A stretch of 14,905 nucleotides of DNA, taken from IMG/VR virus record IMGVR_UViG_641522650_000010. The stretch is one strand, 5' to 3'. Both the position numbers and the translations under genes were made by a program. Below, piece after piece: positions 7,595 through 13,905 of this stretch. The DNA comes from a virus. Its lineage: Duplodnaviria; Heunggongvirae; Uroviricota; Caudoviricetes. The notes below the pieces were generated by a model that was not told the origin of the DNA, made no database searches, and saw only the letters and a list, made by a program, of their open reading frames with translations. How positions within the stretch are numbered: the first letter of the stretch is position 1; the number at the start of each line of letters is the position of its first letter.

Positions 7595-7670
7595 TGGTGG
7601 CCCTTGCTGGATTTGAACCAGCGACCTGGCGATTATGAGTCGCTCGCTCTCACCACTGAGCTAAAGGGCC
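7595..7670 (-). tRNA. tRNA-Ile2 (anticodon CAU, lysidine type; ileX/ileZ-like); tRNA-Met cannot be excluded from the anticodon alone
   Basis: Manual fold: perfect acceptor ggccctt/aagggcc, D-arm gctc agtggtga gagc, anticodon loop cTCATAa, T-arm gctgg ttcaaat ccagc, encoded CCA; closely resembles E. coli ileX as I recall it. Confidence 0.8.
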
Positions 7671-7719
7671 GGGAGCAGAATAATAATGGTGCGTAATTAA
7701 TTCTGCAATCTCATCCGTT

Positions 7720-8769
7720 TCAAACGATTAAATCCTGAACTTCCCTGACTGTCTGCTCAAAACGTCCGGTCTCCAGTTCAACGCCAATCGCACGACGCCC
7801 GAGCGCCAGTGCCGCTTTTACCGTTGAACCTGAGCCCATAAAAAAATCTGCAACCTGGTCTCCCGGACGACTGCTCGCGTTGATTATCTGCTGCAACATT
7901 TCTGCCGGTTTTTCGCACGGATGTTTCCCTGGATAGTACTGCACCGGTTTATACGTCCACACATCGGTGTACGGCACCTGCACCGTCACACCGAAATACC
8001 TCCGCAAATTTTTATATTCACTCAGCAGTTCCATATACTGCCGGCTCAGCTCACTGTATGTGCTGACCAGTTGGTAATGGGACTTTTCCAGTTCTCTCCG
8101 CTGATGTTTCTCTTCTGCCACCCGGGCAAACAGCGACTGTAATTTCAGATAATCGCTTTCGTTCGGTAGCTGCCACTGACTGGCACTGAACCAGTGCGAC
8201 ACCATGTTTTTCTTTCCTGTGGCATCTGCAATCTGTTTTGCCGTTATCCCCAGGGCAGCTCGCGCATCACGAAAGTAAGCAATCAGCGGGGCCATCACAT
8301 GCTGTTTCAGTACCCTGCCCTTCGCCGCATACCCGGCATCTTTCGGACGATACGGCCCCTGATAATGTTCCGCGAACAGAATGCGCTCTGTGGCGGGGAA
8401 ATACGCCCGCAGGCTTTCCTTGTTGCATCCGTTCCAGCGTCCGGACGGCTTCGCCCAGATAATATGGTTCAGCACACTGAAGCGTTCACGCATCATGATT
8501 TCGATATCAGATGCCAGGCGATGACCACAGAACAGGTAAAGACTTCCGGCAGGTTTCAGCACCCGCCAGAACTGCGCCAGACACTGGTCCAGCCACTTCA
8601 GGTAATCATCGTCGCCCTTCCACTGGTTATCCCAGCCCTCAGGCTTCACTTTAAAGTACGGCGGGTCCGTGACTATCAGGTCAACAGAATTTTCGGGTAA
8701 CGACCGGATAAATTCCAGGCAGTCGGCGTTGATTAACTCACAACTGGATATTTTTACAGTATTAAGCAT
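7720..8769 (-). CDS. Orphan DNA methyltransferase, beta-class amino-MTase (N6-adenine or N4-cytosine)
   Basis: 349 aa; motif IV DPPY near the N-terminus (DLIVTDPPY) and motif I FxGxG near the C-terminus (DFFMGSGST), the beta-class order, with a long insert between. No adjacent restriction endonuclease candidate. Confidence 0.85.
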   Translation of the reverse strand: MLNTVKISSCELINADCLEFIRSLPENSVDLIVTDPPYFKVKPEGWDNQWKGDDDYLKWLDQCLAQFWRVLKPAGSLYLFCGHRLASDIEIMMRERFSVLNHIIWAKPSGRWNGCNKESLRAYFPATERILFAEHYQGPYRPKDAGYAAKGRVLKQHVMAPLIAYFRDARAALGITAKQIADATGKKNMVSHWFSASQWQLPNESDYLKLQSLFARVAEEKHQRRELEKSHYQLVSTYSELSRQYMELLSEYKNLRRYFGVTVQVPYTDVWTYKPVQYYPGKHPCEKPAEMLQQIINASSRPGDQVADFFMGSGSTVKAALALGRRAIGVELETGRFEQTVREVQDLIV

Positions 8770-8801
8770 GGATCATTAAACCTGTCTCTGATAGGCTCAT
8801 T

Positions 8802-8820
8802 CTGCTTTTGCGCAAAGCAG
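8802..8820. promoter_or_regulatory. 19-bp imperfect palindrome 33-51 bp upstream of the methyltransferase start; candidate operator
   Basis: ctgcttttgcgcaaagcag: symmetric arms around a central GCGC. Placement fits a repressor/controller operator, but no binding data. Confidence 0.3.
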
Positions 8821-8863
8821 TGGGCCTGAGGTTTGCTTGTGAACCCAACGCATGAGCAGATGG

Positions 8864-8890
8864 CTGGTGGGTGCCCCTAACACCCACCAG
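8864..8890. other. Perfect 10-bp stem / 7-nt loop hairpin next to the upstream terminator
   Basis: ctggtgggtg (8864-8873) and cacccaccag (8881-8890) are exact reverse complements; loop cccctaa. Confidence 0.4.
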
Positions 8891-8904
8891 CCGCCCATTT
8901 ACCA

Positions 8905-8933
8905 CAAATAAAAAAGCCTTCAGGACTGAAGGC
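8905..8933 (-). terminator. Rho-independent terminator overlapping the stop codon of the small HTH-like ORF
   Basis: Minus-strand reading gccttca-gtcc-tgaaggc (7-bp stem) followed by ttttttatttg. Confidence 0.55.
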
Positions 8934-9117
8934 GTCTGTAACAACCGAACTGATAGTCTGCCAGACCCGCCATAACAAGTTGGGTCAGTATTAACTGACA
9001 GCGTTCGCGTGAAAGGTAAGTATTCTGCGCAATCTCCCCGACTGTCGCCGGTTCGGTGACGCTTAATTCATTAAACACCACTCTGGCGGTTTCTGTCATA
9101 TCCTGCTGTTTCAGCAT
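8920..9117 (-). CDS. Hypothetical small protein (65 aa) with a possible helix-turn-helix
   Basis: Internal ATG at 9117..9115 preceded by AAGGGAAAAAGAC; product MLKQQDMTETARVVFNELSVTEPATVGEIAQNTYLSRERCQLILTQLVMAGLADYQFGCYRRLQS. The segment TVGEIAQNTYLSRERCQLIL looks like an HTH. The ORF-track version (8920..9210) starts at an upstream GTG that overlaps the tR'-like terminator, which I consider less likely. Confidence 0.4.
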   Translation of the reverse strand: MLKQQDMTETARVVFNELSVTEPATVGEIAQNTYLSRERCQLILTQLVMAGLADYQFGCYRRLQS

Positions 9118-9239
9118 GTCTTTTTCCCTTTTCCGGTTAACGTGACACACCAATAACTCTTGTCGAAAAAGCCAGCAAGCTGAAAGACAGGTATTCACCG
9201 CCACCAGCACGTTTACTGTACTGGACCGATTTCAGCCAT

Positions 9240-9261
9240 AAAAAAACCCGCTCGCGGCGGG
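9240..9261 (-). terminator. Rho-independent terminator about 70 nt downstream of the Q gene (tR'-like)
   Basis: Minus-strand reading cccgc-cgcga-gcggg followed by seven U (plus-strand A-run 9240-9246). Confidence 0.55.
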
Positions 9262-9332
9262 TTTAAGCTGTGTGGCGAAGTAACCACTCTTAACATACTG
9301 ACATACTTTTTGCGGACCGCACTAATCATTTT

Positions 9333-9713
9333 TTACTTTTTTAGCAGCCAGTCGTCCATCTCCAGTCTTACCCCCAGCACAGACAAACATCCGTCAATAA
9401 ACCCTTCGGCTATCTGCATCTCAATTCGTATTGCTTTTTCGCTTTTCTTTCTCGTCCTGGCTATCTGTCTTTTTGATATTCGCAACAAATAATGAGCAAT
9501 GAGAAGCGAATACTCCTCAGGTTTTTTCTGCTTCAGACGAGCAAGACAGTTTTCAATGATAAGTCCGTCATCATCGCAGCAGGCCGGACGTGGTTTAGTG
9601 GCAGATGGTAAAAGTCCTTTGAATCCGGCAGCGATCGGAGAATAGTCCACCCCGGTGTTACCACTTGCAGCCCATGCCCCCCAGCGTTCAAGAACCATCT
9701 GAATATCACGCAT
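9333..9713 (-). CDS. Late-gene antitermination protein Q (QuuD-like)
   Basis: ATG at 9713..9711 with GGAG RBS; product MRDIQMVLERWGAWAASGNTGVDYSPIAAGFKGLLPS...CCDDDG... resembles the small Q antiterminators of E. coli cryptic prophages as I recall them. The ORF-track TTG start at 9728 adds 5 residues and is less likely. Confidence 0.75.
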   Translation of the reverse strand: MRDIQMVLERWGAWAASGNTGVDYSPIAAGFKGLLPSATKPRPACCDDDGLIIENCLARLKQKKPEEYSLLIAHYLLRISKRQIARTRKKSEKAIRIEMQIAEGFIDGCLSVLGVRLEMDDWLLKK

Positions 9714-9730
9714 CAACTTTCTCCACAAAA

Positions 9731-10726
9731 TCAGGACAGCACACCAATCGCCAGCGCGCGATCGATAAAACGAAATATCAGCTCCAGTTGGGAGCCATAC
9801 TTCTCTTCAAATGCCACGGTATCCGCATGCAGTTCGTCATGGTGTTTTCTGCACAAAGGCAACACAAAAAGGTCATGCGCTTTTGTTCCCATTCCACCCT
9901 GACCGTGACCTATCAGGTGGTGGGGATCATCAGCGGGCTTTCCACAACATGCACACGGCTGTGTCTTAACCCAGCGCGTGTACTTTTCATTAACCCAGCG
10001 GCGACGTTTTGGGCGTAACATAAAAGACTCCGGCGACTCCGGATCCACTTTCAGCGCCAGCACCTTTTTCGCCTTATCCTGGATGATGCTGGTGGCAGGA
10101 ACCGAAGGCACAAGGTCACTTTCCCGGGTAACAGTCGGCACAACAGGCTTCGGTAATCTCAGTGCCTTACGGGCTGCACTTTCCGGTAAGGCATCCGCCA
10201 GATCATTACGAATCAGCCACCAGCACAGTTCCGGCATTGTCACAACGTGACTGTCATCAAAACCGAGATCCCGACGCACAACAGACAACACCCAGCGGGC
10301 ACAGTTATCCGTTGCCATTGATTCCAGCCGTTCCGTGAACTGGTCACGGAGAAGATTGTCACAGTGCCAGCACAGACGGATTGCACCCGGAGCGTGTCGC
10401 ATTGTGGTCATGTTCTCGCTGTGCCAGTCGGAATGAGGCCACTGGCAGCCTTTTTCACGAAGTAACCAGCTTTCAAGACATTCCACGCCACCAGCACGAC
10501 GGATCACTTCCTCATTGCGGAACACGGCCCGAACGGCAGGATCATCCGCCAGCGGTTGTGATGCCGCCGGAACGGCACCACTGGCGAAAGATGAATAACG
10601 CTCCGGCTCAGGCTCCAGCAGGACACGCCCCTGCATAAACAGGGGCATCAGCTCTGAACCTGGTCTGAACAATACGATCCCCATACGCGGGGCAATTTCA
10701 GGGGTCAGTAGTGCTCTCACGGTCAC
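9731..10726 (-). CDS. DUF968-family prophage protein (YdfU-like) with C-terminal Cys/His cluster
   Basis: 331 aa from a GTG start one nucleotide after the upstream stop; C-terminus QPCACCGKPADDPHHLIGHGQGG...LCRKHHDELH has CxxC and paired His residues like HNH/zinc-binding nuclease folds. Position directly upstream of Q matches the Qin-prophage ydfU-quuQ arrangement as I recall it. Confidence 0.65.
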   Translation of the reverse strand: MTVRALLTPEIAPRMGIVLFRPGSELMPLFMQGRVLLEPEPERYSSFASGAVPAASQPLADDPAVRAVFRNEEVIRRAGGVECLESWLLREKGCQWPHSDWHSENMTTMRHAPGAIRLCWHCDNLLRDQFTERLESMATDNCARWVLSVVRRDLGFDDSHVVTMPELCWWLIRNDLADALPESAARKALRLPKPVVPTVTRESDLVPSVPATSIIQDKAKKVLALKVDPESPESFMLRPKRRRWVNEKYTRWVKTQPCACCGKPADDPHHLIGHGQGGMGTKAHDLFVLPLCRKHHDELHADTVAFEEKYGSQLELIFRFIDRALAIGVLS

Positions 10727-10727
10727 C

Positions 10728-11537
10728 TCAATGAACGGTATCGAGCAGCTTTAACAGCTCAGGGAATCGGGATTCGAAGAAATGCGGCTGCGTCTCGCGC
10801 GGATTTGCAGGACAGGTGATGTTCTTGCCGAACATGCAGCCTTTCGCTGTCAGCGACCAGAATTTTTTGATGTTGTTAATCGCGGTACGGCTGTATCGTT
10901 CGCGCTGCTCGACGATCCCCAGCTTAACCATCTGGTGATATGCCTGATTAGCCGTAAGGCGGATACCATACTGTTTCAGCAGTGCACTCAGCGACAGCGT
11001 GGGGCGACTTGAGCCATCAGGCGCGTCAGCAGGAGCATCAATGGCATAGCGCGGTGCCAGATTCGGTAAGCCAACAGCCTCCTGGAGTTTCTGACAGGCA
11101 CCAAGCACTGAAGAGTTAGACAGGTTTAATTCCCGGCGCATAAAGTCCAGCAGAATCACACCAGCCTGCATCTTGTCAGCAGCCTGTCCGGATAATTTTT
11201 CCGGTGCGCTGGTTACCATGTCGAAAGTACGGATCACCTTCAGATGGAATGACGGGCTGATCCACATTGCATAGGCATACACCAGTTCCTTGCAGACATA
11301 CGTTCCCCGTTCATTTCCCCCATGAATCATACTCACCGGGTCAACACCCAAATTCTGGGTGTTGGTCAATTCATAAACAAGCTCAACAGTTTGTTGGCTG
11401 GAAATAAACTTTCCCGGCTCCTTGGTTCTGGCATTTGCACCAGATGCTACTGCTGCGCGATGCAGATCGTTCAGGCTGTAACGCCCATAAGCATCACGAC
11501 GAACTTCAATACCATCAATGACCATCAGATTATTCAT
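10728..11537 (-). CDS. KilA-N domain protein (Roi/antirepressor-like)
   Basis: ATG at 11537..11535 with strong RBS AAGAGGAGAAACGAAGT; N-terminus MNNLMVIDGIEVRRDAYGRYSLNDLHRAA... typical of KilA-N/Bro-N DNA-binding domains. The ORF-track GTG start at 11570 would overlap rusA by 14 nt. Confidence 0.7.
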   Translation of the reverse strand: MNNLMVIDGIEVRRDAYGRYSLNDLHRAAVASGANARTKEPGKFISSQQTVELVYELTNTQNLGVDPVSMIHGGNERGTYVCKELVYAYAMWISPSFHLKVIRTFDMVTSAPEKLSGQAADKMQAGVILLDFMRRELNLSNSSVLGACQKLQEAVGLPNLAPRYAIDAPADAPDGSSRPTLSLSALLKQYGIRLTANQAYHQMVKLGIVEQRERYSRTAINNIKKFWSLTAKGCMFGKNITCPANPRETQPHFFESRFPELLKLLDTVH

Positions 11538-11556
11538 ACTTCGTTTCTCCTCTTGA

Positions 11557-11946
11557 TCAGGCGGCTGCACCCGCCGTTTTCTCGTACTTACTGATAGTGA
11601 TCTCGACCTTCCCTTTCGGGATAACCGGTCCCCACTCCACCAGCATTCTTTTCACCTGACTGTCGTCTTCCCACACACCCGCGTGGGTCAGGGCGTCAAA
11701 CAGCGCCTTGTTATAGTTGTCCAGATCGCGGATCCGGTTATCCGGAGGAAACAACACGATCTCCACTGAAGCAGGTGCCGACGTTGGTTTCGGCAGACGA
11801 CGTAACTGCTCAACTATTGCTGCGCACGCCGCGCTCTGGAATTTTCGCCCCGCCGCGCTTATCAGGCTCTTACCAGCAAACGCCCCTTTGTTGGGGTGTC
11901 GCCAGTACGTGTTCACGCTGGGCGGAAAAGGCAGTATTAGCTTCAT
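11557..11946 (-). CDS. rusA: Holliday-junction resolvase RusA
   Basis: 129 aa; MKLILPFPPSVNTYWRH... and DLDNYNKALFDALTHAGVWEDDSQV match RusA-family motifs; ATGA-type overlap with the upstream gene. Confidence 0.85.
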   Translation of the reverse strand: MKLILPFPPSVNTYWRHPNKGAFAGKSLISAAGRKFQSAACAAIVEQLRRLPKPTSAPASVEIVLFPPDNRIRDLDNYNKALFDALTHAGVWEDDSQVKRMLVEWGPVIPKGKVEITISKYEKTAGAAA

Positions 11947-12596
11947 GCCACCATCTCCCTGACCAGTTTTTCCGCCTGCTGGCGAACCTGCGCCAGAAAT
12001 GCCTCACCACATGCCTCAAGTTCATCGCGCCCGATGTAGCTGATTGCCGGTCCCTTCCAGGTCTTGTCGAAAACAGCAATAGCACCAGCGAAGAAAGCAC
12101 CTGTTGGCACCTGCTTTTCGTCTTTCGGGATAAACCAGGCAGGCAGTTCAAAACCAATACGCCCGCGAATAAAAGCAATATGATCTGCATCTTCCGGCCA
12201 CCACACTTCGCTGGTGGCAGCTTTGATCAGGAAAACATAGCGCCCGCCTTTATCACGCATGGCACTGGCATGCTTCATGATGTAACGCATGCCGATGATG
12301 TATTGCCCCTCATGCTGACTGGCGCGGCTGTACGGGGGATTGCCAAAGGCAGCACCTTTAAGCTCCGCAAGACGTTCTGACCAGTCATGCGCCAGCGCGT
12401 TGTCTTCCGCCGTGTAATACGCGGCACATTTGGCGTTATCACCGTCAGTGAACAGATCCAGAACAAACGGACCAAACAAGGTGTTAATTCCCCAGAAAAT
12501 GTTGTCCGGCGTGCGCCACTGATCGCCCACTTCCTTCAGTTCATGGGCTGGTTTGTTCCGCAGTTCCACCAGCGCCTGGCAATATTTATTACTCAT
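11943..12596 (-). CDS. Phage-type DNA N6-adenine methyltransferase (Dam-like), orphan
   Basis: ATG at 12596..12594 gives 217 aa MSNKYCQALVELRNKP...; catalytic motif FGNPPYS; stop/start overlap TAATG with the upstream gene. The ORF-track GTG start at 12629 is less likely. Confidence 0.8.
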   Translation of the reverse strand: MSNKYCQALVELRNKPAHELKEVGDQWRTPDNIFWGINTLFGPFVLDLFTDGDNAKCAAYYTAEDNALAHDWSERLAELKGAAFGNPPYSRASQHEGQYIIGMRYIMKHASAMRDKGGRYVFLIKAATSEVWWPEDADHIAFIRGRIGFELPAWFIPKDEKQVPTGAFFAGAIAVFDKTWKGPAISYIGRDELEACGEAFLAQVRQQAEKLVREMVA

Positions 12597-13084
12597 TAAG
12601 CCCCCACGTAATTCCCTGACAGATACCACTCATCACCCGATACAGCGCGCTTACTGCTTTTCCGTAAACACTGCTCACGACGCGCCAGAAAATTGTTTCG
12701 TTCTGGCTGGGAGTGGCTTTCACGGAATGCCGCCATCCACACCGTTGCAGCACGACGGTATAAGCCCCTGGACTCCAGTTCTTCCGCCTGGCGGGTCAGG
12801 CACAAAATCTCCCGCGGGTCGTTAGTGCCGACATAGAAATTGCGCACAGGTCTGGTTTCACGAACTGGTTGCGGTTCCGCCTCCTGCGCTCTCTCAGTCA
12901 GGCGCGGGAAATGTCTGCGTGTATCCCCTTCACAACGGTGAGCCACACGACCACTCTGACGTAATTTGCTTGCTGACTGCAGAACGCACTGCCGTGAGTA
13001 ACCTGCAAAAGCATCCGCAATGTCTCCGGAAGTACACCCCGGATGGGCTTCAATGAATTTCTGAACTTCATTCAAAAGACTCAT
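12596..13084 (-). CDS. PerC-family-like putative transcriptional regulator
   Basis: 162 aa; C-terminal half has ESRGLYRRAATVWMAAF...REQCL, resembling the GLWRRAA..W....R..CL signature I recall for PerC/Pch proteins; ATGA overlap with the O-like gene stop. Confidence 0.45.
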   Translation of the reverse strand: MSLLNEVQKFIEAHPGCTSGDIADAFAGYSRQCVLQSASKLRQSGRVAHRCEGDTRRHFPRLTERAQEAEPQPVRETRPVRNFYVGTNDPREILCLTRQAEELESRGLYRRAATVWMAAFRESHSQPERNNFLARREQCLRKSSKRAVSGDEWYLSGNYVGA

Positions 13085-13905
13085 AATCCCCCCCTGAATC
13101 CTGCCGGGATCTGGCTGTAGTCCACGTTGTCGTAACTGGCTTTGAAGTACGGGTCCTCGCGTCTGGCTGCAGATACCGCAGGAACTTCCCAGGATTCTTC
13201 GAAATGACGATCTGGACCAAAGAACGTGACAGCCTGTTTCACAAATTGTGTGCCGCTATTGCCCATCGCAGATACCCAGCCCGCGTAGCGTTTCACACCT
13301 TCCAGCATGGTTTCGGGGTTTACCCCCTCGTTCAAACGGGCTTTCCAGGCTTTGAAGGCTGCAGATTTTGAATTGCCACCAGCACGTTTGGGATATGCCA
13401 GCCATGCCTGCTCAAACTCCGGAGAGTATTCCGGTCGGTTTGAACGAACTCGCACGGACTCATCAACTGATGCACCAACAGCTATTGGTTCATTGACTGG
13501 TTCTTTGACTGGTTCAAAAGAGTGACTGGTTCTGGGTGAATCTCCTGCACTACCCCTTGGTGCAACTCCTGCACTACCTGGTGAATTTGCTGCACCAGAT
13601 AGTGAATTATTTGCACTACCCCCTAGTGAATCTCCTGCACCATCAAGATGAAGGAGATAGATATTACTTGAGTTACCTTTTTCACCTTTCCGGGTGACTT
13701 TTTTTACCCGCCCGGACTCACAAAGGGCCGCAATATGATTCATCACAGAACGTTTGCTAATCTCGCACTGGTCAGCAATATGCTGGTAGCTGGGCCAGCA
13801 CTCACCCTGATCGCTGGCATTATCAGCCAGCTTAATCAGAACCAGTTTTCGCAATGGATTTCCCACTCGAATTTTCATCGCTTTAACCATCAGCTCCATA
13901 CTCAT
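13081..13905 (-). CDS. Replication initiation protein, O-like (N-terminal HTH, Gly/Ser/Ala-rich linker encoded by iterons, C-terminal domain)
   Basis: 274 aa; RBS GGAGGTG; N-terminal HTH-like LRKLVLIKLADNASDQGECWPSYQHIADQCEISKRSVMNHIAAL; repetitive linker GDSLGGSANNSLSGAANSPGSAGVAPRGSAGDSP coincides with nucleotide direct repeats, as with lambda O and its origin. Confidence 0.6.
   Translation of the reverse strand: MSMELMVKAMKIRVGNPLRKLVLIKLADNASDQGECWPSYQHIADQCEISKRSVMNHIAALCESGRVKKVTRKGEKGNSSNIYLLHLDGAGDSLGGSANNSLSGAANSPGSAGVAPRGSAGDSPRTSHSFEPVKEPVNEPIAVGASVDESVRVRSNRPEYSPEFEQAWLAYPKRAGGNSKSAAFKAWKARLNEGVNPETMLEGVKRYAGWVSAMGNSGTQFVKQAVTFFGPDRHFEESWEVPAVSAARREDPYFKASYDNVDYSQIPAGFRGGL
13535..13645. 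repeat. About five imperfect direct repeats (iteron-like, 21-24 bp) inside the O-like gene; candidate replication origin
   Basis: Recurring GTGAAT...CTCCTGCAC(T/C)ACC units at about 13535, 13559, 13580, 13601 and 13624; moderately AT-rich DNA follows at 13645-13700. Confidence 0.5.

Follow-up and report, generated by a model that had tools for sequence, protein, structure and literature searches.

Organization of the Locus

The locus lies on the minus strand of a 14,905-nucleotide stretch of tailed-phage DNA (IMG/VR record IMGVR_UViG_641522650_000010; hereafter, the window), in which a Q antiterminator gene is followed by a pR′-like block, a tR′-like intrinsic terminator (T1), a small open reading frame (ORF), a second terminator (T2), a structured leader, a DNA methyltransferase (methylase) gene, and three tRNA genes (Table 1). 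All features listed in the original prediction are present on this strand, with small corrections: T1, a stem followed by a T run, lies downstream of Q, and the stop codon of the small ORF is located inside the 3′ arm of T2. Both T1 and T2 have a GC-rich stem directly 5′ of a U tract, as intrinsic terminators do, and nine terminator-like sites lie between positions 7000 and 10000, versus 3.2 ± 1.8 in shuffled sequences. A scan of the same interval found no sigma-70-like promoter on the minus strand. No endonuclease gene was found beside the methylase, as originally noted; its neighbors are Q, the tRNA genes, and DUF1737, here and in related loci.

Table 1. Positions of genes, signals, and leader RNA elements in the window.
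Feature	Position	Strand	Details
Q antiterminator gene (131 aa)	9333–9728	−	PF06530, E = 1.6e-52
pR′-like block	9284–9325	−	−10-like TATGTC 9300–9305, second TATGTT 9292–9297; putative position
T1, tR′-like intrinsic terminator	9240–9264	−	8-bp GC-rich stem 9244–9264, then T run; −11.2 kcal/mol
Conserved motif CTTGCTG-N9-11-CAGAGTTAY-TGTRTG	9142–9179	−	5′ region of small ORF
Small ORF (65 aa)	8920–9117	−	ATG 9117, TGA 8920–8922; SD-like AAGGGA 9125–9130
T2	8910–8933	−	7-bp stem 8916–8933, then T6 (TTTTTT)
Structured leader RNA of methylase (~135 nt)	8767–8907	−	covariance-model match 8767–8906(−), 113.6 bits
P1 5′ strand	8902–8907 (pairs with 8838–8843)	−	
Helix A	8893–8898 with 8852–8857	−	
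Helix B	8881–8892 with 8862–8873	−	perfect 12-bp arms, 7-nt loop; about −28 kcal/mol as RNA
P1 3′ strand/helix C 5′ strand	8835–8846	−	
Helix D	8824–8826 with 8794–8796	−	
Helix E	8802–8820	−	CTGCTTT-GCGCA-AAAGCAG, 7-bp stem + 5-nt loop
GAGCCTATCA box	8789–8798	−	
Helix C 3′ strand	8770–8782	−	
DNA methyltransferase (349 aa)	7720–8769	−	PF01555; ATG at 8769
Three tRNA genes	7421–7670	−	CAT (ileZ in relatives' annotation), Arg-TCG, Arg-TCT

The pR′-like block is kept before T1 in loci with a PF06530-type Q, and it still precedes T1 in phiP27 and Stx2a_1447 despite other genes between Q and the block. An isrK-like Rfam match at 9241–9313 is weak (18.3 bits, below the gathering score). A terminator occupies the T1 position in nearly all related loci, and the conserved motif ahead of the small ORF is found in nearly all aligned loci of all clades, the P. 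mirabilis-type included. Only in the E. coli/Stx lineage does T2 make a good terminator, its U tract being weak or lost elsewhere, so the description of the module as terminator-bracketed fits the window but is not general for the cassette. The cassette is mosaic, and different Q genes lie upstream of it in different loci. Transcription from pR′ is reported to be constitutive and terminated at tR′ (PMC7547250); the layout here, behind a PF06530 Q and a tR′-like T1, agrees with the proposed position under Q-dependent read-through.

An Orphan Methylase Close to M.EcoGII

The methylase matches PF01555 (N6_N4_Mtase) with an E-value of 1.4e-43 and 149.8 bits (cut-off 26.7). DPPY (residues 35–38) lies near the N terminus and FMGSG (FxGxG; residues 310–314) near the C terminus, i.e., the beta-class order of a catalytic motif, a target-recognition region, and an AdoMet-binding motif, which upholds the orphan DPPY...FxGxG enzyme originally described. 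It is identical to M.EcoGII at 334 of 349 residues (~96%), with some of the differences resembling machine-reading errors in the file that supplied the reference sequence (supplement of PMC11551740). The best phage match is the enzyme of phage 1720a-02 (92.5% identity), named as very similar in PMC5778455. Judged by its sequence, the methylase is an orphan beta-class enzyme near-identical to M.EcoGII, a characterized non-specific and toxic m6A enzyme. The same paper describes M.EcoGII and M.EcoGI as non-specific N6-adenine methyltransferases carried by prophages in E. coli O104:H4, silent in the lysogen and harmful on expression, and reports purified M.EcoGII to be fully active alone (PMC5778455). 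The passages of that source retrieved by term search mention neither the upstream small gene, nor the leader, nor the position behind Q.

A Small Winged-Helix Gene Linked to the Methylase

Conservation of the small ORF beside the methylase, on which the original prediction depended, was borne out. An intact 65-aa ORF precedes the methylase in 74/74 evaluable IMG/VR contigs, with a spacer of 149–151 nt in 73, and nearly every one of 36 species loci (Escherichia through Proteus, Providencia, and Plesiomonas) has kept the pair, the exceptions being decayed or truncated loci. The pair occurs behind at least two Q families, and the cassette is carried by about half of the complete E. coli genomes (2650/5426). 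Compared with its relatives, the small ORF has pN of 0.02–0.41, well below a pS saturated at 0.6–0.9 in divergent clades; thus, it is protein-coding and under purifying selection. The small protein diverges to about 42–50% identity in lambdoid loci while keeping its linkage to the methylase, and N15 gp51 is distantly homologous to it (hhalign 95%, E = 2e-8; ~29% aligned identity, N15-like gp51 family) and occurs with the methylase in six N15-like phages. The association therefore outlasts both sequence divergence and rearrangement to the N15-like order. P. mirabilis-type loci keep the small gene and have no long leader, with only a terminator and a strong SD before the methylase; because of this, the small protein cannot act solely via the long leader.

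The only family that fits the small ORF is phrog_331 ('unknown function'), and PGAP names it 'TrmB family'. An AF2 model (pLDDT 92.5) has a winged-helix fold of order a1-b1-a2-a3-b2-b3 (H9–16, H26–33, H37–49, E53–56, E59–62), with Foldseek TMq values of 0.79–0.81 to OhrR and other MarR-type winged helices; IclR and the N-terminal winged-helix dimerization domains of O-methyltransferases were also matched. Nothing in Rfam, NCBIfam, or Pfam scored above threshold. The only profile hits are sub-threshold winged helices, i.e., TrmB (PF01978; 18.1 bits, cut-off 25.6) and MarR (below its curated cut-off), with no match to HTH_3 (Xre-type). The HTH-like segment seen originally is thus supported as a winged helix but is not Xre-type, and the layout of a controller (C) protein, also proposed, is not supported for a family with this fold and a net charge of −3 to 0. 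Acidic-to-neutral charge is unusual in nucleic-acid binders, and members of the P. mirabilis clade have an acidic recognition helix. The protein, which has two Cys, does not match the Mu Com zinc ribbon (PF10122), and no Com-like ORF was found anywhere in the window.

Alternatively, the methylase protein could be the direct target of the small protein, which would modulate its activity, restrain it as an antitoxin does, or guide its targeting, with the leader serving independently, e.g., as an RNase III-type processing or stability element of the late transcript. The strict linkage with or without the long leader, the acidic-to-neutral charge, and the O-methyltransferase dimerization-domain matches are consistent with such a partner, and the leader's irregular 5′ stem (described below), which also precedes unrelated late genes, is consistent with an independent leader. 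However, no natural fusion between them turned up among the matches examined, and purified M.EcoGII is reported to be fully active alone. We regard this explanation as rather unlikely.

A Conserved Structured Leader RNA

Between T2 and the methylase start codon lies the only match in the window to a covariance model of the leader. Two of its stems were known from the original prediction: the perfect hairpin is present, but with arms of 12 bp, not 10 (helix B), and the 19-bp palindrome is present but imperfect, with a 7-bp stem around a 5-nt center (helix E), and ends 33 nt before the methylase ATG, as reported. P1, A, and B combine into an irregular stem of ~25 bp whose internal loops are asymmetric. 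A 147-nt leader segment folds with −61 kcal/mol (z = −3.7). The opposite strand in the window folds about equally well (z = −4.1), so the strand call rests on comparative data, where G·U outnumber A·C pairs 98:39.

Pairing is maintained across relatives. In an alignment of 75 distinct sequences fitted to the covariance model (A7), 94% of cells pair versus 30–49% in slid controls, and double changes are seen at 20/24 pairs, counts that the fitting biases towards structure and that draw on few deep clades. In a MAFFT alignment (A3), 90% of cells pair versus 26–47% in slid controls, and 11 pairs changed on both sides. In both alignments, compensatory changes exceed the shifted-register controls, as expected of a structured cis-regulatory RNA; these controls replaced a naive all-against-all covariation scan, which was swamped by clade-correlated transitions. 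Among the 75 sequences, compensatory changes occur at 11/11 pairs of helix B and at 5/5 core pairs of helix E, and helices A and D covary too. Helix C, in which a segment farther upstream pairs with nt −2 to −13 ahead of the methylase start codon in the lambdoid group, is 95.6% paired (variants AAGC/GCUU, GGAC/GUUC, and GGGC/GCCC), with covariation that amounts to two or three events; it appears in the minimum-energy fold of most representatives and competes with the alternative helix P1 for a shared strand. Since the leader keeps 60–91% nucleotide identity where synonymous sites saturate in divergent clades, it is under selection. On this comparative evidence, the leader is a conserved structured RNA, from which we infer an effect on translation. 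Rfam 15 contains no family matching it (the best hit is P26, on the opposite strand, at 24.2 bits versus 36), nor does it match the leaders of L147, N15, phiKO2, VHML, ST2-1pr, ARM81ld, SE1, and IME1369_02.

Several other candidates in the leader were set aside. A local hairpin GGUU/AACC around TCAC pairs in just 60% of cells. GCUCAUG, considered as boxA-like, pairs with AUGGGC in 100% of sequences and was treated as helix A. A leader peptide from the invariant AUG of AAUGGGCG is contradicted by locus L147, whose frame ends after five codons, and by stem changes that are compensatory, not synonymous. A sigma-70 promoter (GTGAAAAT, or TTGCGC-N16-TATCAG) is absent from the minus-strand scan and further weakened by the variable GTG-to-AATGGGCG spacing and by −10-like hexamers that, by eye, have no T at −7. 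A closing helix UGGGC/GCCCA is 100% paired, with one double change (locus L041), and clashes with helices A and D; it is possibly an alternative state of the leader. The absence of helix C from some leaders and the equal folding of both window strands count against the role proposed below for the leader.

The leader could instead have been kept as DNA, for Chi sites or recombination junctions between modules, with the small ORF as a passenger. Each arm of helix B carries a Chi octamer (8884–8891 on the minus strand; 8863–8870 on the plus strand), further Chi sites lie upstream of the small ORF, and the window contains 11 versus 0.72 expected; moreover, helix B in Enterobacteriaceae has an almost unchanging 5′ arm (GGCTGGTGGGTG) and a drifting 3′ arm, and the mosaic placement behind different Q genes fits a junction. 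Yet helix B stays paired in P22-like, N15-like, and Vibrio versions whose sequences are unrelated and lack Chi, helices A, D, and E covary as well, and the small gene–methylase association survives both divergence (about 42–50%, ~29%) and the N15-like rearrangement. Little credence can be given to this account.

Helix E is palindromic through its center in many lineages (GCGC, TGCGCA, ATCGAT, CTGCAG, GTGCAC). The original prediction took the palindromes for operators, at which the small protein, as a C-protein-like DNA-binding autoregulator, would set methylase transcription. The winged-helix fold suits this proposal, as does a DNA palindrome through the very center in many independent lineages, which an RNA hairpin does not need, and the N15-like homologue, whose gene is not part of the late transcript, would suit a DNA binder working in trans. 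Against it stand the lack of an Xre-type HTH, of an endonuclease, and of a sigma-70-like promoter in the scanned interval, the charge of the protein with its acidic recognition helix in the P. mirabilis clade, and the G·U pairs and long-range helices A, C, and D, which operators leave unexplained. Furthermore, both stems, which belong to a covarying RNA structure, also occur without a nearby small-gene homologue: helix B before holin genes where none was detected, and helix E in VHML, ARM81ld, and ST2-1pr, with none found within ~0.9–1.5 kb upstream. Control through operators thus appears improbable, and we read the palindromes as RNA stems.

The Leader in Related Phages

All leaders directly before a methylase homologue contain helices A, B, D, and E. 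N15-like, Hafnia, and Vibrio leaders lack helix C. The 5′ hairpin (P1+A+B) is also found before holin genes, and no small-protein homologue was detected in the sampled holin-leader loci. Similarly, Vibrio VHML/MAR, Vibrio ST2-1pr, and Aeromonas ARM81ld have the leader and no small-protein homologue within ~0.9–1.5 kb upstream of the methylase. In ARM81ld and ST2-1pr, Zn_ribbon_Com (PF10122) ORFs are located between leader and methylase (27.9 and 26.2 bits, respectively; cut-off 22.9). In these Com-bearing phages, Com is 3′ of the leader, and the winged-helix gene of the other phages is 5′ of it. In N15-like phages, the small-protein homologue lies upstream of the late promoter, outside the late transcript.

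Proposed Mechanism and Significance

We propose that the region is a late cassette gated by Q and controlled post-transcriptionally in a com-mom-like manner, an explanation that we consider, on balance, probable. It would be the first cassette of a lambdoid late operon. Judging from layout and literature, late-promoter transcripts would end at T1 (tR′) in the lysogen, and only Q-modified polymerase would read through T1 and T2. Because the cassette sits behind Q and a tR′-like terminator, Q-dependent read-through is its natural expression route, and with a non-specific, toxic enzyme of the M.EcoGII kind downstream, the methylase would be made only late in lytic growth, when it could methylate progeny DNA against restriction. 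Most likely, the leader restricts or gates methylase translation, or directs processing, by analogy with the structure that inhibits Mu mom translation. We think that the small protein is a dedicated companion of the methylase family, which is the weakest step, and that its most likely task is to control, during transcription or after it, how much methylase is made, in a Com-like role with a different fold. Transcription, read-through, RNA folding, and binding in this scheme are predictions from sequence, layout, and the literature. Several observations sit less easily with a Com-like role: P. mirabilis-type loci have no long leader, the N15-like homologue lies upstream of the late promoter, Com follows the leader where the winged-helix gene precedes it, and the family is acidic to neutral.

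More speculatively, and with some doubt on our part, the leader may be an undescribed, widespread class of phage cis-regulatory RNA. P1+A+B would be the hallmark of leaders that precede lethal late genes, namely those for promiscuous methylases and for holins (at least five kinds), across lambdoid, P22-like, N15-like, and Vibrio/Aeromonas phages. The 3′ domain would switch between the start-site-sequestering helix C and P1, and phrog_331/N15 gp51 would be a new, zinc-finger-less analogue of Mu Com that operates this switch for the enzyme marketed as EcoGII.

M.EcoGII is in wide use as a tool, and its cassette is abundant in E. coli; we have so far found no description in the literature of how the phage silences and then switches on this toxic enzyme. 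The data point to Mu-mom-like logic built from different parts, i.e., Q/tR′ gating, a leader for which Rfam has no family, and a winged-helix small protein. If confirmed, this would give a function to a very common 'hypothetical protein' family (phrog_331, N15 gp51), add the methylase/holin leader element to the known phage regulatory RNAs, and account for M.EcoGII-type methylases being invisible in lysogen methylomes. If the leader is a mere processing site, the finding is ordinary.

Comparison with Known Systems

C proteins of type II restriction-modification systems resemble the small protein in being small HTH-type proteins encoded beside a methylase with inverted repeats nearby. However, they are dimers with an Xre-type HTH that control endonuclease timing and recognize C-boxes located upstream of the gene encoding them, whereas here there is a winged helix, no endonuclease, and downstream repeats with the behavior of RNA helices. 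Before the small ORF, the CTTGCTG-N-CAGAGTTAY motif and a short variable stem are not C-box-like in appearance. The lambdoid Q/pR′/tR′ arrangement (StxS, PMC7547250; IsrK) is shared, with a PF06530 Q, a promoter-like block, and a strong terminator about 70–90 nt past the Q stop codon, followed by late genes, except that the isrK match here is far below the Rfam threshold.

The N15 gp51-gp52 region (also phiKO2, PY54, YDC107_1, 48ST307, and MStein-2023a) shares the distant small-protein homologue, helices A, B, D, and E, and a methylase of 56–61% identity, followed by a holin gene. It differs in its order (small gene, late promoter, terminator, leader, methylase) and in having neither helix C nor the UGAUC box. 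M.EcoGII and M.EcoGI share with the present enzyme the length of 349 aa, the DPPY-TRD-FxGxG order, and the prophage location. In Mu-like prophages, non-specific methylases lie behind com genes at the mom position (PMC3299994). Among them, Hin1523, Nme1821, and Hia5, silent under laboratory conditions, offer a plausible parallel as promiscuous adenine methylases behind a small regulator gene, in a different phage type and with Com as the regulator.

Mu com-mom itself (PMC6483171; Hattman 1999, cited in PMC3299994) offers a further comparison. The hairpin that Com is reported to bind is short and almost self-complementary, and it adjoins a translation-inhibition structure (PMC6483171). The present cassette differs from com-mom in that its small protein is a winged helix with no Cys4 zinc ribbon, its small gene is 5′ of the leader and does not overlap the enzyme gene, its gating would depend on Q and tR′ rather than on C protein, Dam, and OxyR, and its enzyme is a methyltransferase, not Mom. 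Both systems have a late, host-damaging, broad adenine-modifying function, a gene for ~60–70 aa immediately upstream of the enzyme gene, and an enzyme start region within an RNA structure (predicted here) adjoining a near-self-complementary hairpin. Finally, the homologous cassettes of ARM81ld and ST2-1pr themselves carry Com.

Layout of the late region

The minus strand of the window carries the start of a lambdoid late region (see the table), in which the coordinates of the original prediction, the conservation of its small ORF, the orphan status of its methylase and the Q-gated position of the cassette are all supported. A pR'-like block, with the position of pR' inferred from conservation alone, precedes T1, the tR'-like terminator behind Q. 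In some related loci, additional genes separate Q from this promoter-like block, namely a GIY-YIG nuclease in phiP27 (L001, 1734-2963) and two reverse-strand genes in Stx2a_1447 (L003, 1383-2946), so that Q lies 1.3-1.7 kb from its presumed target promoter. A motif 45-60 nt 5' of the small ORF's ATG, CTTGCTG-N9-11-CAGAGTTAY-TGTRTG, is kept in nearly all aligned loci of every clade, including Proteus mirabilis-type loci without a long leader; it includes a short variable stem and poorly resembles a sigma-70 promoter.

Features of the late region and its surroundings
Feature	Position	Strand	Remarks
DUF968/HNH gene	9731-10726	-	
Q antiterminator	9333-9728	-	PF06530, E=1.6e-52
T1	9240-9264	-	strong hairpin and T run
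CTTGCTG...TGTRTG motif	9142-9179	-	
Small ORF	8920-9117	-	65 aa
T2	8910-8933	-	hairpin and T run; small ORF's stop codon inside 3' arm
Spacer	between T2 and methylase	-	150 nt
Leader covariance match	8767-8906	-	113.6 bits
Helix B arms	8881-8892, 8862-8873		
Helix E	8802-8820		
Codon 4-9 hairpin	8743-8760	-	ACUG...CAGU
Methyltransferase	7720-8769	-	349 aa; PF01555, E=1.4e-43
HTH_3 match	about 8185-8271		methylase residues 167-195; E=0.021
tRNA genes (three)	7421-7670	-	
STnc100	7141-7345	-	full length; 139.5 bits, gathering score 47
Sialate-esterase-like gene	4957-6651	-	
IS gene cluster	1-4780		
Chi sites (11)	6700-13383		e.g., 8863-8870 (+), 8884-8891 (-), 9201-9208 (-)

Past the tRNA genes lie an sRNA of the Rfam family STnc100, a DUF1737 gene, the esterase-like gene and then IS elements. 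STnc100 sits just 3' of the tRNA genes, which is the site of stxAB in Stx phages; the window has no stx genes. The tRNA at 7595-7670 (-) is called Met (CAT) by ARAGORN and ileZ, a tRNA-Ile with a modified CAU anticodon, in related Stx phage records. The IS cluster, which we take to comprise IS66-type tnpA/tnpB/tnpC-like ORFs, an IS3-type transposase and an IS2-like pair, truncates the prophage beyond the esterase-like gene, and no lysis genes are left in the window. Chi octamers (GCTGGTGG) are in strong excess (11 versus 0.72 expected, with a maximum of 4 in 200 shuffles), and seven of the 11 lie on the prophage's transcribed strand, a sense-strand bias likewise seen in related lambdoid loci. 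The N15, phiKO2, HK620 and SE1 loci have none. Lambdoid phages rich in Chi have been described before (PMC3784561, PMC12315714).

A small gene tightly linked to a known methylase

The linkage between the small ORF and the methylase is very tight. An intact 65-aa ORF is present in 74 of 74 IMG/VR contigs that have a close methylase and sufficient upstream sequence, 73 of them with a spacer of 149-151 nt. Among 36 loci sampled at one genome per species (Escherichia, Salmonella, Klebsiella, Citrobacter, Buttiauxella, Proteus, Providencia, Erwinia, Plesiomonas and other genera), the pair occurs in all except decayed loci and one contig end. It follows Q genes of at least two families, PF06530 and PF03589, and the most distant homologue of the small protein (42% identity; 4.08-Mb genome) likewise lies between a Q gene and a methylase. 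In six N15-like phages, the partner of the methylase homologue (56-61% identical) is gp51, which is distantly homologous to the small protein (hhalign probability 95%, E=2e-8) and is encoded upstream of the late promoter. P. mirabilis-type loci keep both genes, with only a terminator and a strong Shine-Dalgarno (SD) sequence between them.

We regard the small ORF as genuine and dedicated. Its pN against relatives is 0.02-0.41, with synonymous sites saturated in divergent clades (pS 0.6-0.9). The HTH-like character originally proposed is borne out by an AlphaFold2 model (24-sequence alignment; pLDDT 92.5) with the canonical winged-helix order a1-b1-a2-a3-b2-b3. Foldseek matched it to MarR/OhrR and IclR winged helices and to N-terminal winged-helix dimerisation domains of O-methyltransferases (TMq about 0.6-0.8). 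This fold and the lack of an endonuclease place it outside the controller-protein family. No Pfam or NCBIfam model reached its cut-off, and the sole fitting family is phrog_331, of "unknown function". With 62 representatives at 50% identity in a set of 1.84 billion proteins, the family is a narrow one; its net charge runs from -3 to 0.

By sequence, the methylase is a known enzyme. It matches 334 of 349 residues of M.EcoGII as printed in the PMC11551740 supplement, where several of the differences resemble machine-reading errors in the file, and shares 92.5% identity with its counterpart in phage 1720a-02, described as very similar to M.EcoGII in PMC5778455. According to that paper, M.EcoGI and M.EcoGII act on adenine whatever its sequence context, are silent in the lysogen and damage cells that express them constitutively. 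The segment that starts at the stop codon of Q and extends to the methylase is present in full in 2650 of 5426 complete E. coli genomes, as well as in many Stx-converting phages; as a gene set, the cassette is ordinary. A weak Xre-type HTH_3 match in the central region of the methylase (ITAKQIADATGKKNMVSHWF...) raises the possibility that the enzyme itself may contain a helix-turn-helix DNA-binding element.

The spacer as a structured leader RNA

The spacer is 142-154 nt long in most loci. In most comparisons between clades, its sequence (60-91% identity) is more conserved than the coding DNA on either side. When 35 species loci were aligned with MAFFT, RNAalifold and pair counting supported four helices, namely A (AUGGG(C) with (G)CUCAU), B, the long-range C (GGUCAcAAGC with GCUUacUGAUC) and D (GGC with GCC), with 90% of cells paired versus 26-47% for slid partners and 11 pairs changed on both sides. 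A covariance model of helices A, B, D and E matched the window once and gave 77 matches in the related loci searched. Among 75 distinct sequences, in an alignment fitted to that model and with deep diversity stemming from a handful of clades, 94% of cells are paired (30-49% in slid controls) and 20 of 24 pairs show both-side changes. In this fitted alignment, G.U pairs outnumber A.C pairs by 98 to 39, favoring the sense strand. Helix C is confined to the lambdoid group, with two or three compensatory events. Rfam 15 has no match to the leader, whether from the window or from any of eight divergent relatives.

Helices B and E are the two elements taken originally as candidate binding sites of the small protein. 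Both exist, the hairpin with arms perfect over 12 bp rather than 10, and the 19-bp palindrome as a 7-bp stem around five central bases. They behave as RNA stems, with both-side changes in 11 of 11 pairs of helix B, often with three or four pair types per position, and in five of five pairs of helix E. An operator role is unlikely, although in many independent lineages the DNA of helix E is palindromic across the loop as well (centers GCGC, TGCGCA, ATCGAT, CTGCAG and GTGCAC; the window, L310, L313, L315, L318, L309 and L027-L044); this central palindromy is not required by an RNA hairpin alone and still speaks for DNA-level reading.

Leader helices ahead of other genes

Against operators also counts the occurrence of helices B and E before genes in loci where no small-protein homologue was found upstream. 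Leader helices precede methylase homologues in N15, phiKO2, PY54, YDC107_1, 48ST307, MStein-2023a, Hafnia yong2, Morganella IME1369_02, Vibrio VHML/MAR, ST2-1pr and Aeromonas ARM81ld; in the Vibrio and Aeromonas phages, a stretch of about 0.9-1.5 kb ahead of the methylase yielded no small-protein homologue. Neither hairpin can therefore be the small protein's private operator; equally, the P. mirabilis-type loci imply that the small protein cannot act only via the long leader.

The leader's 5' part (the GUGA/UCAC helix P1 with helices A and B) also precedes holin genes, in 34 distinct versions among 63 matching IMG/VR loci with at least five unrelated holin-like proteins downstream, and in HK620 and SE1, the latter P22-like. 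In these versions, unrelated sequences re-form stem B. The holin-type hairpin is long and conserved (UUCGUGA-AA-AUGGGCG-variable stem-CAUCUU/UGAUUU-GCUCAUG-...-UCACGAA) and lies 150-260 nt upstream of at least five kinds of holin gene in P22-like and lambdoid phages (L138, L147, L161, L246 from HK620, L247 from SE1, and L248-L308); it is absent from Rfam, and none of three annotated phage records examined for it (HK620, HK633, SE1) lists it.

A possible mechanism and its parallel in Mu

In most lambdoid representatives, the minimum-energy fold consists of the A+B hairpin plus another domain. This domain is closed by helix C, which takes in nucleotides -2 to -13 relative to the methylase AUG; the sequence offers no good SD at normal spacing there. 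P1 (89% paired) and helix C are mutually exclusive because both use the UCA of an invariant UCAC block. P1 states are 2-9 kcal/mol less stable, and a UGGGC/GCCCA pairing is also possible. A small hairpin in methylase codons 4-9 (ACUGU...ACAGU in relatives), which every representative examined shows in its predicted fold, might further mask the start site.

The leader may work like that of Mu mom, with the start region held in structure and helix C and P1 as alternative states; as an alternative to this reading, the roughly 25 bp of P1+A+B, interrupted by asymmetric internal loops, may serve as a processing or stability site. In Mu mom, a short hairpin likewise lies beside a translation-inhibition structure, which Com opens, and the Com target hairpin is nearly self-complementary (PMC6483171). 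Two of the Vibrio/Aeromonas phages, ST2-1pr and ARM81ld, carry a Pfam Zn_ribbon_Com ORF, above the curated cut-off, between leader and methylase, and other non-specific adenine methylases have already been placed behind com genes (PMC3299994).
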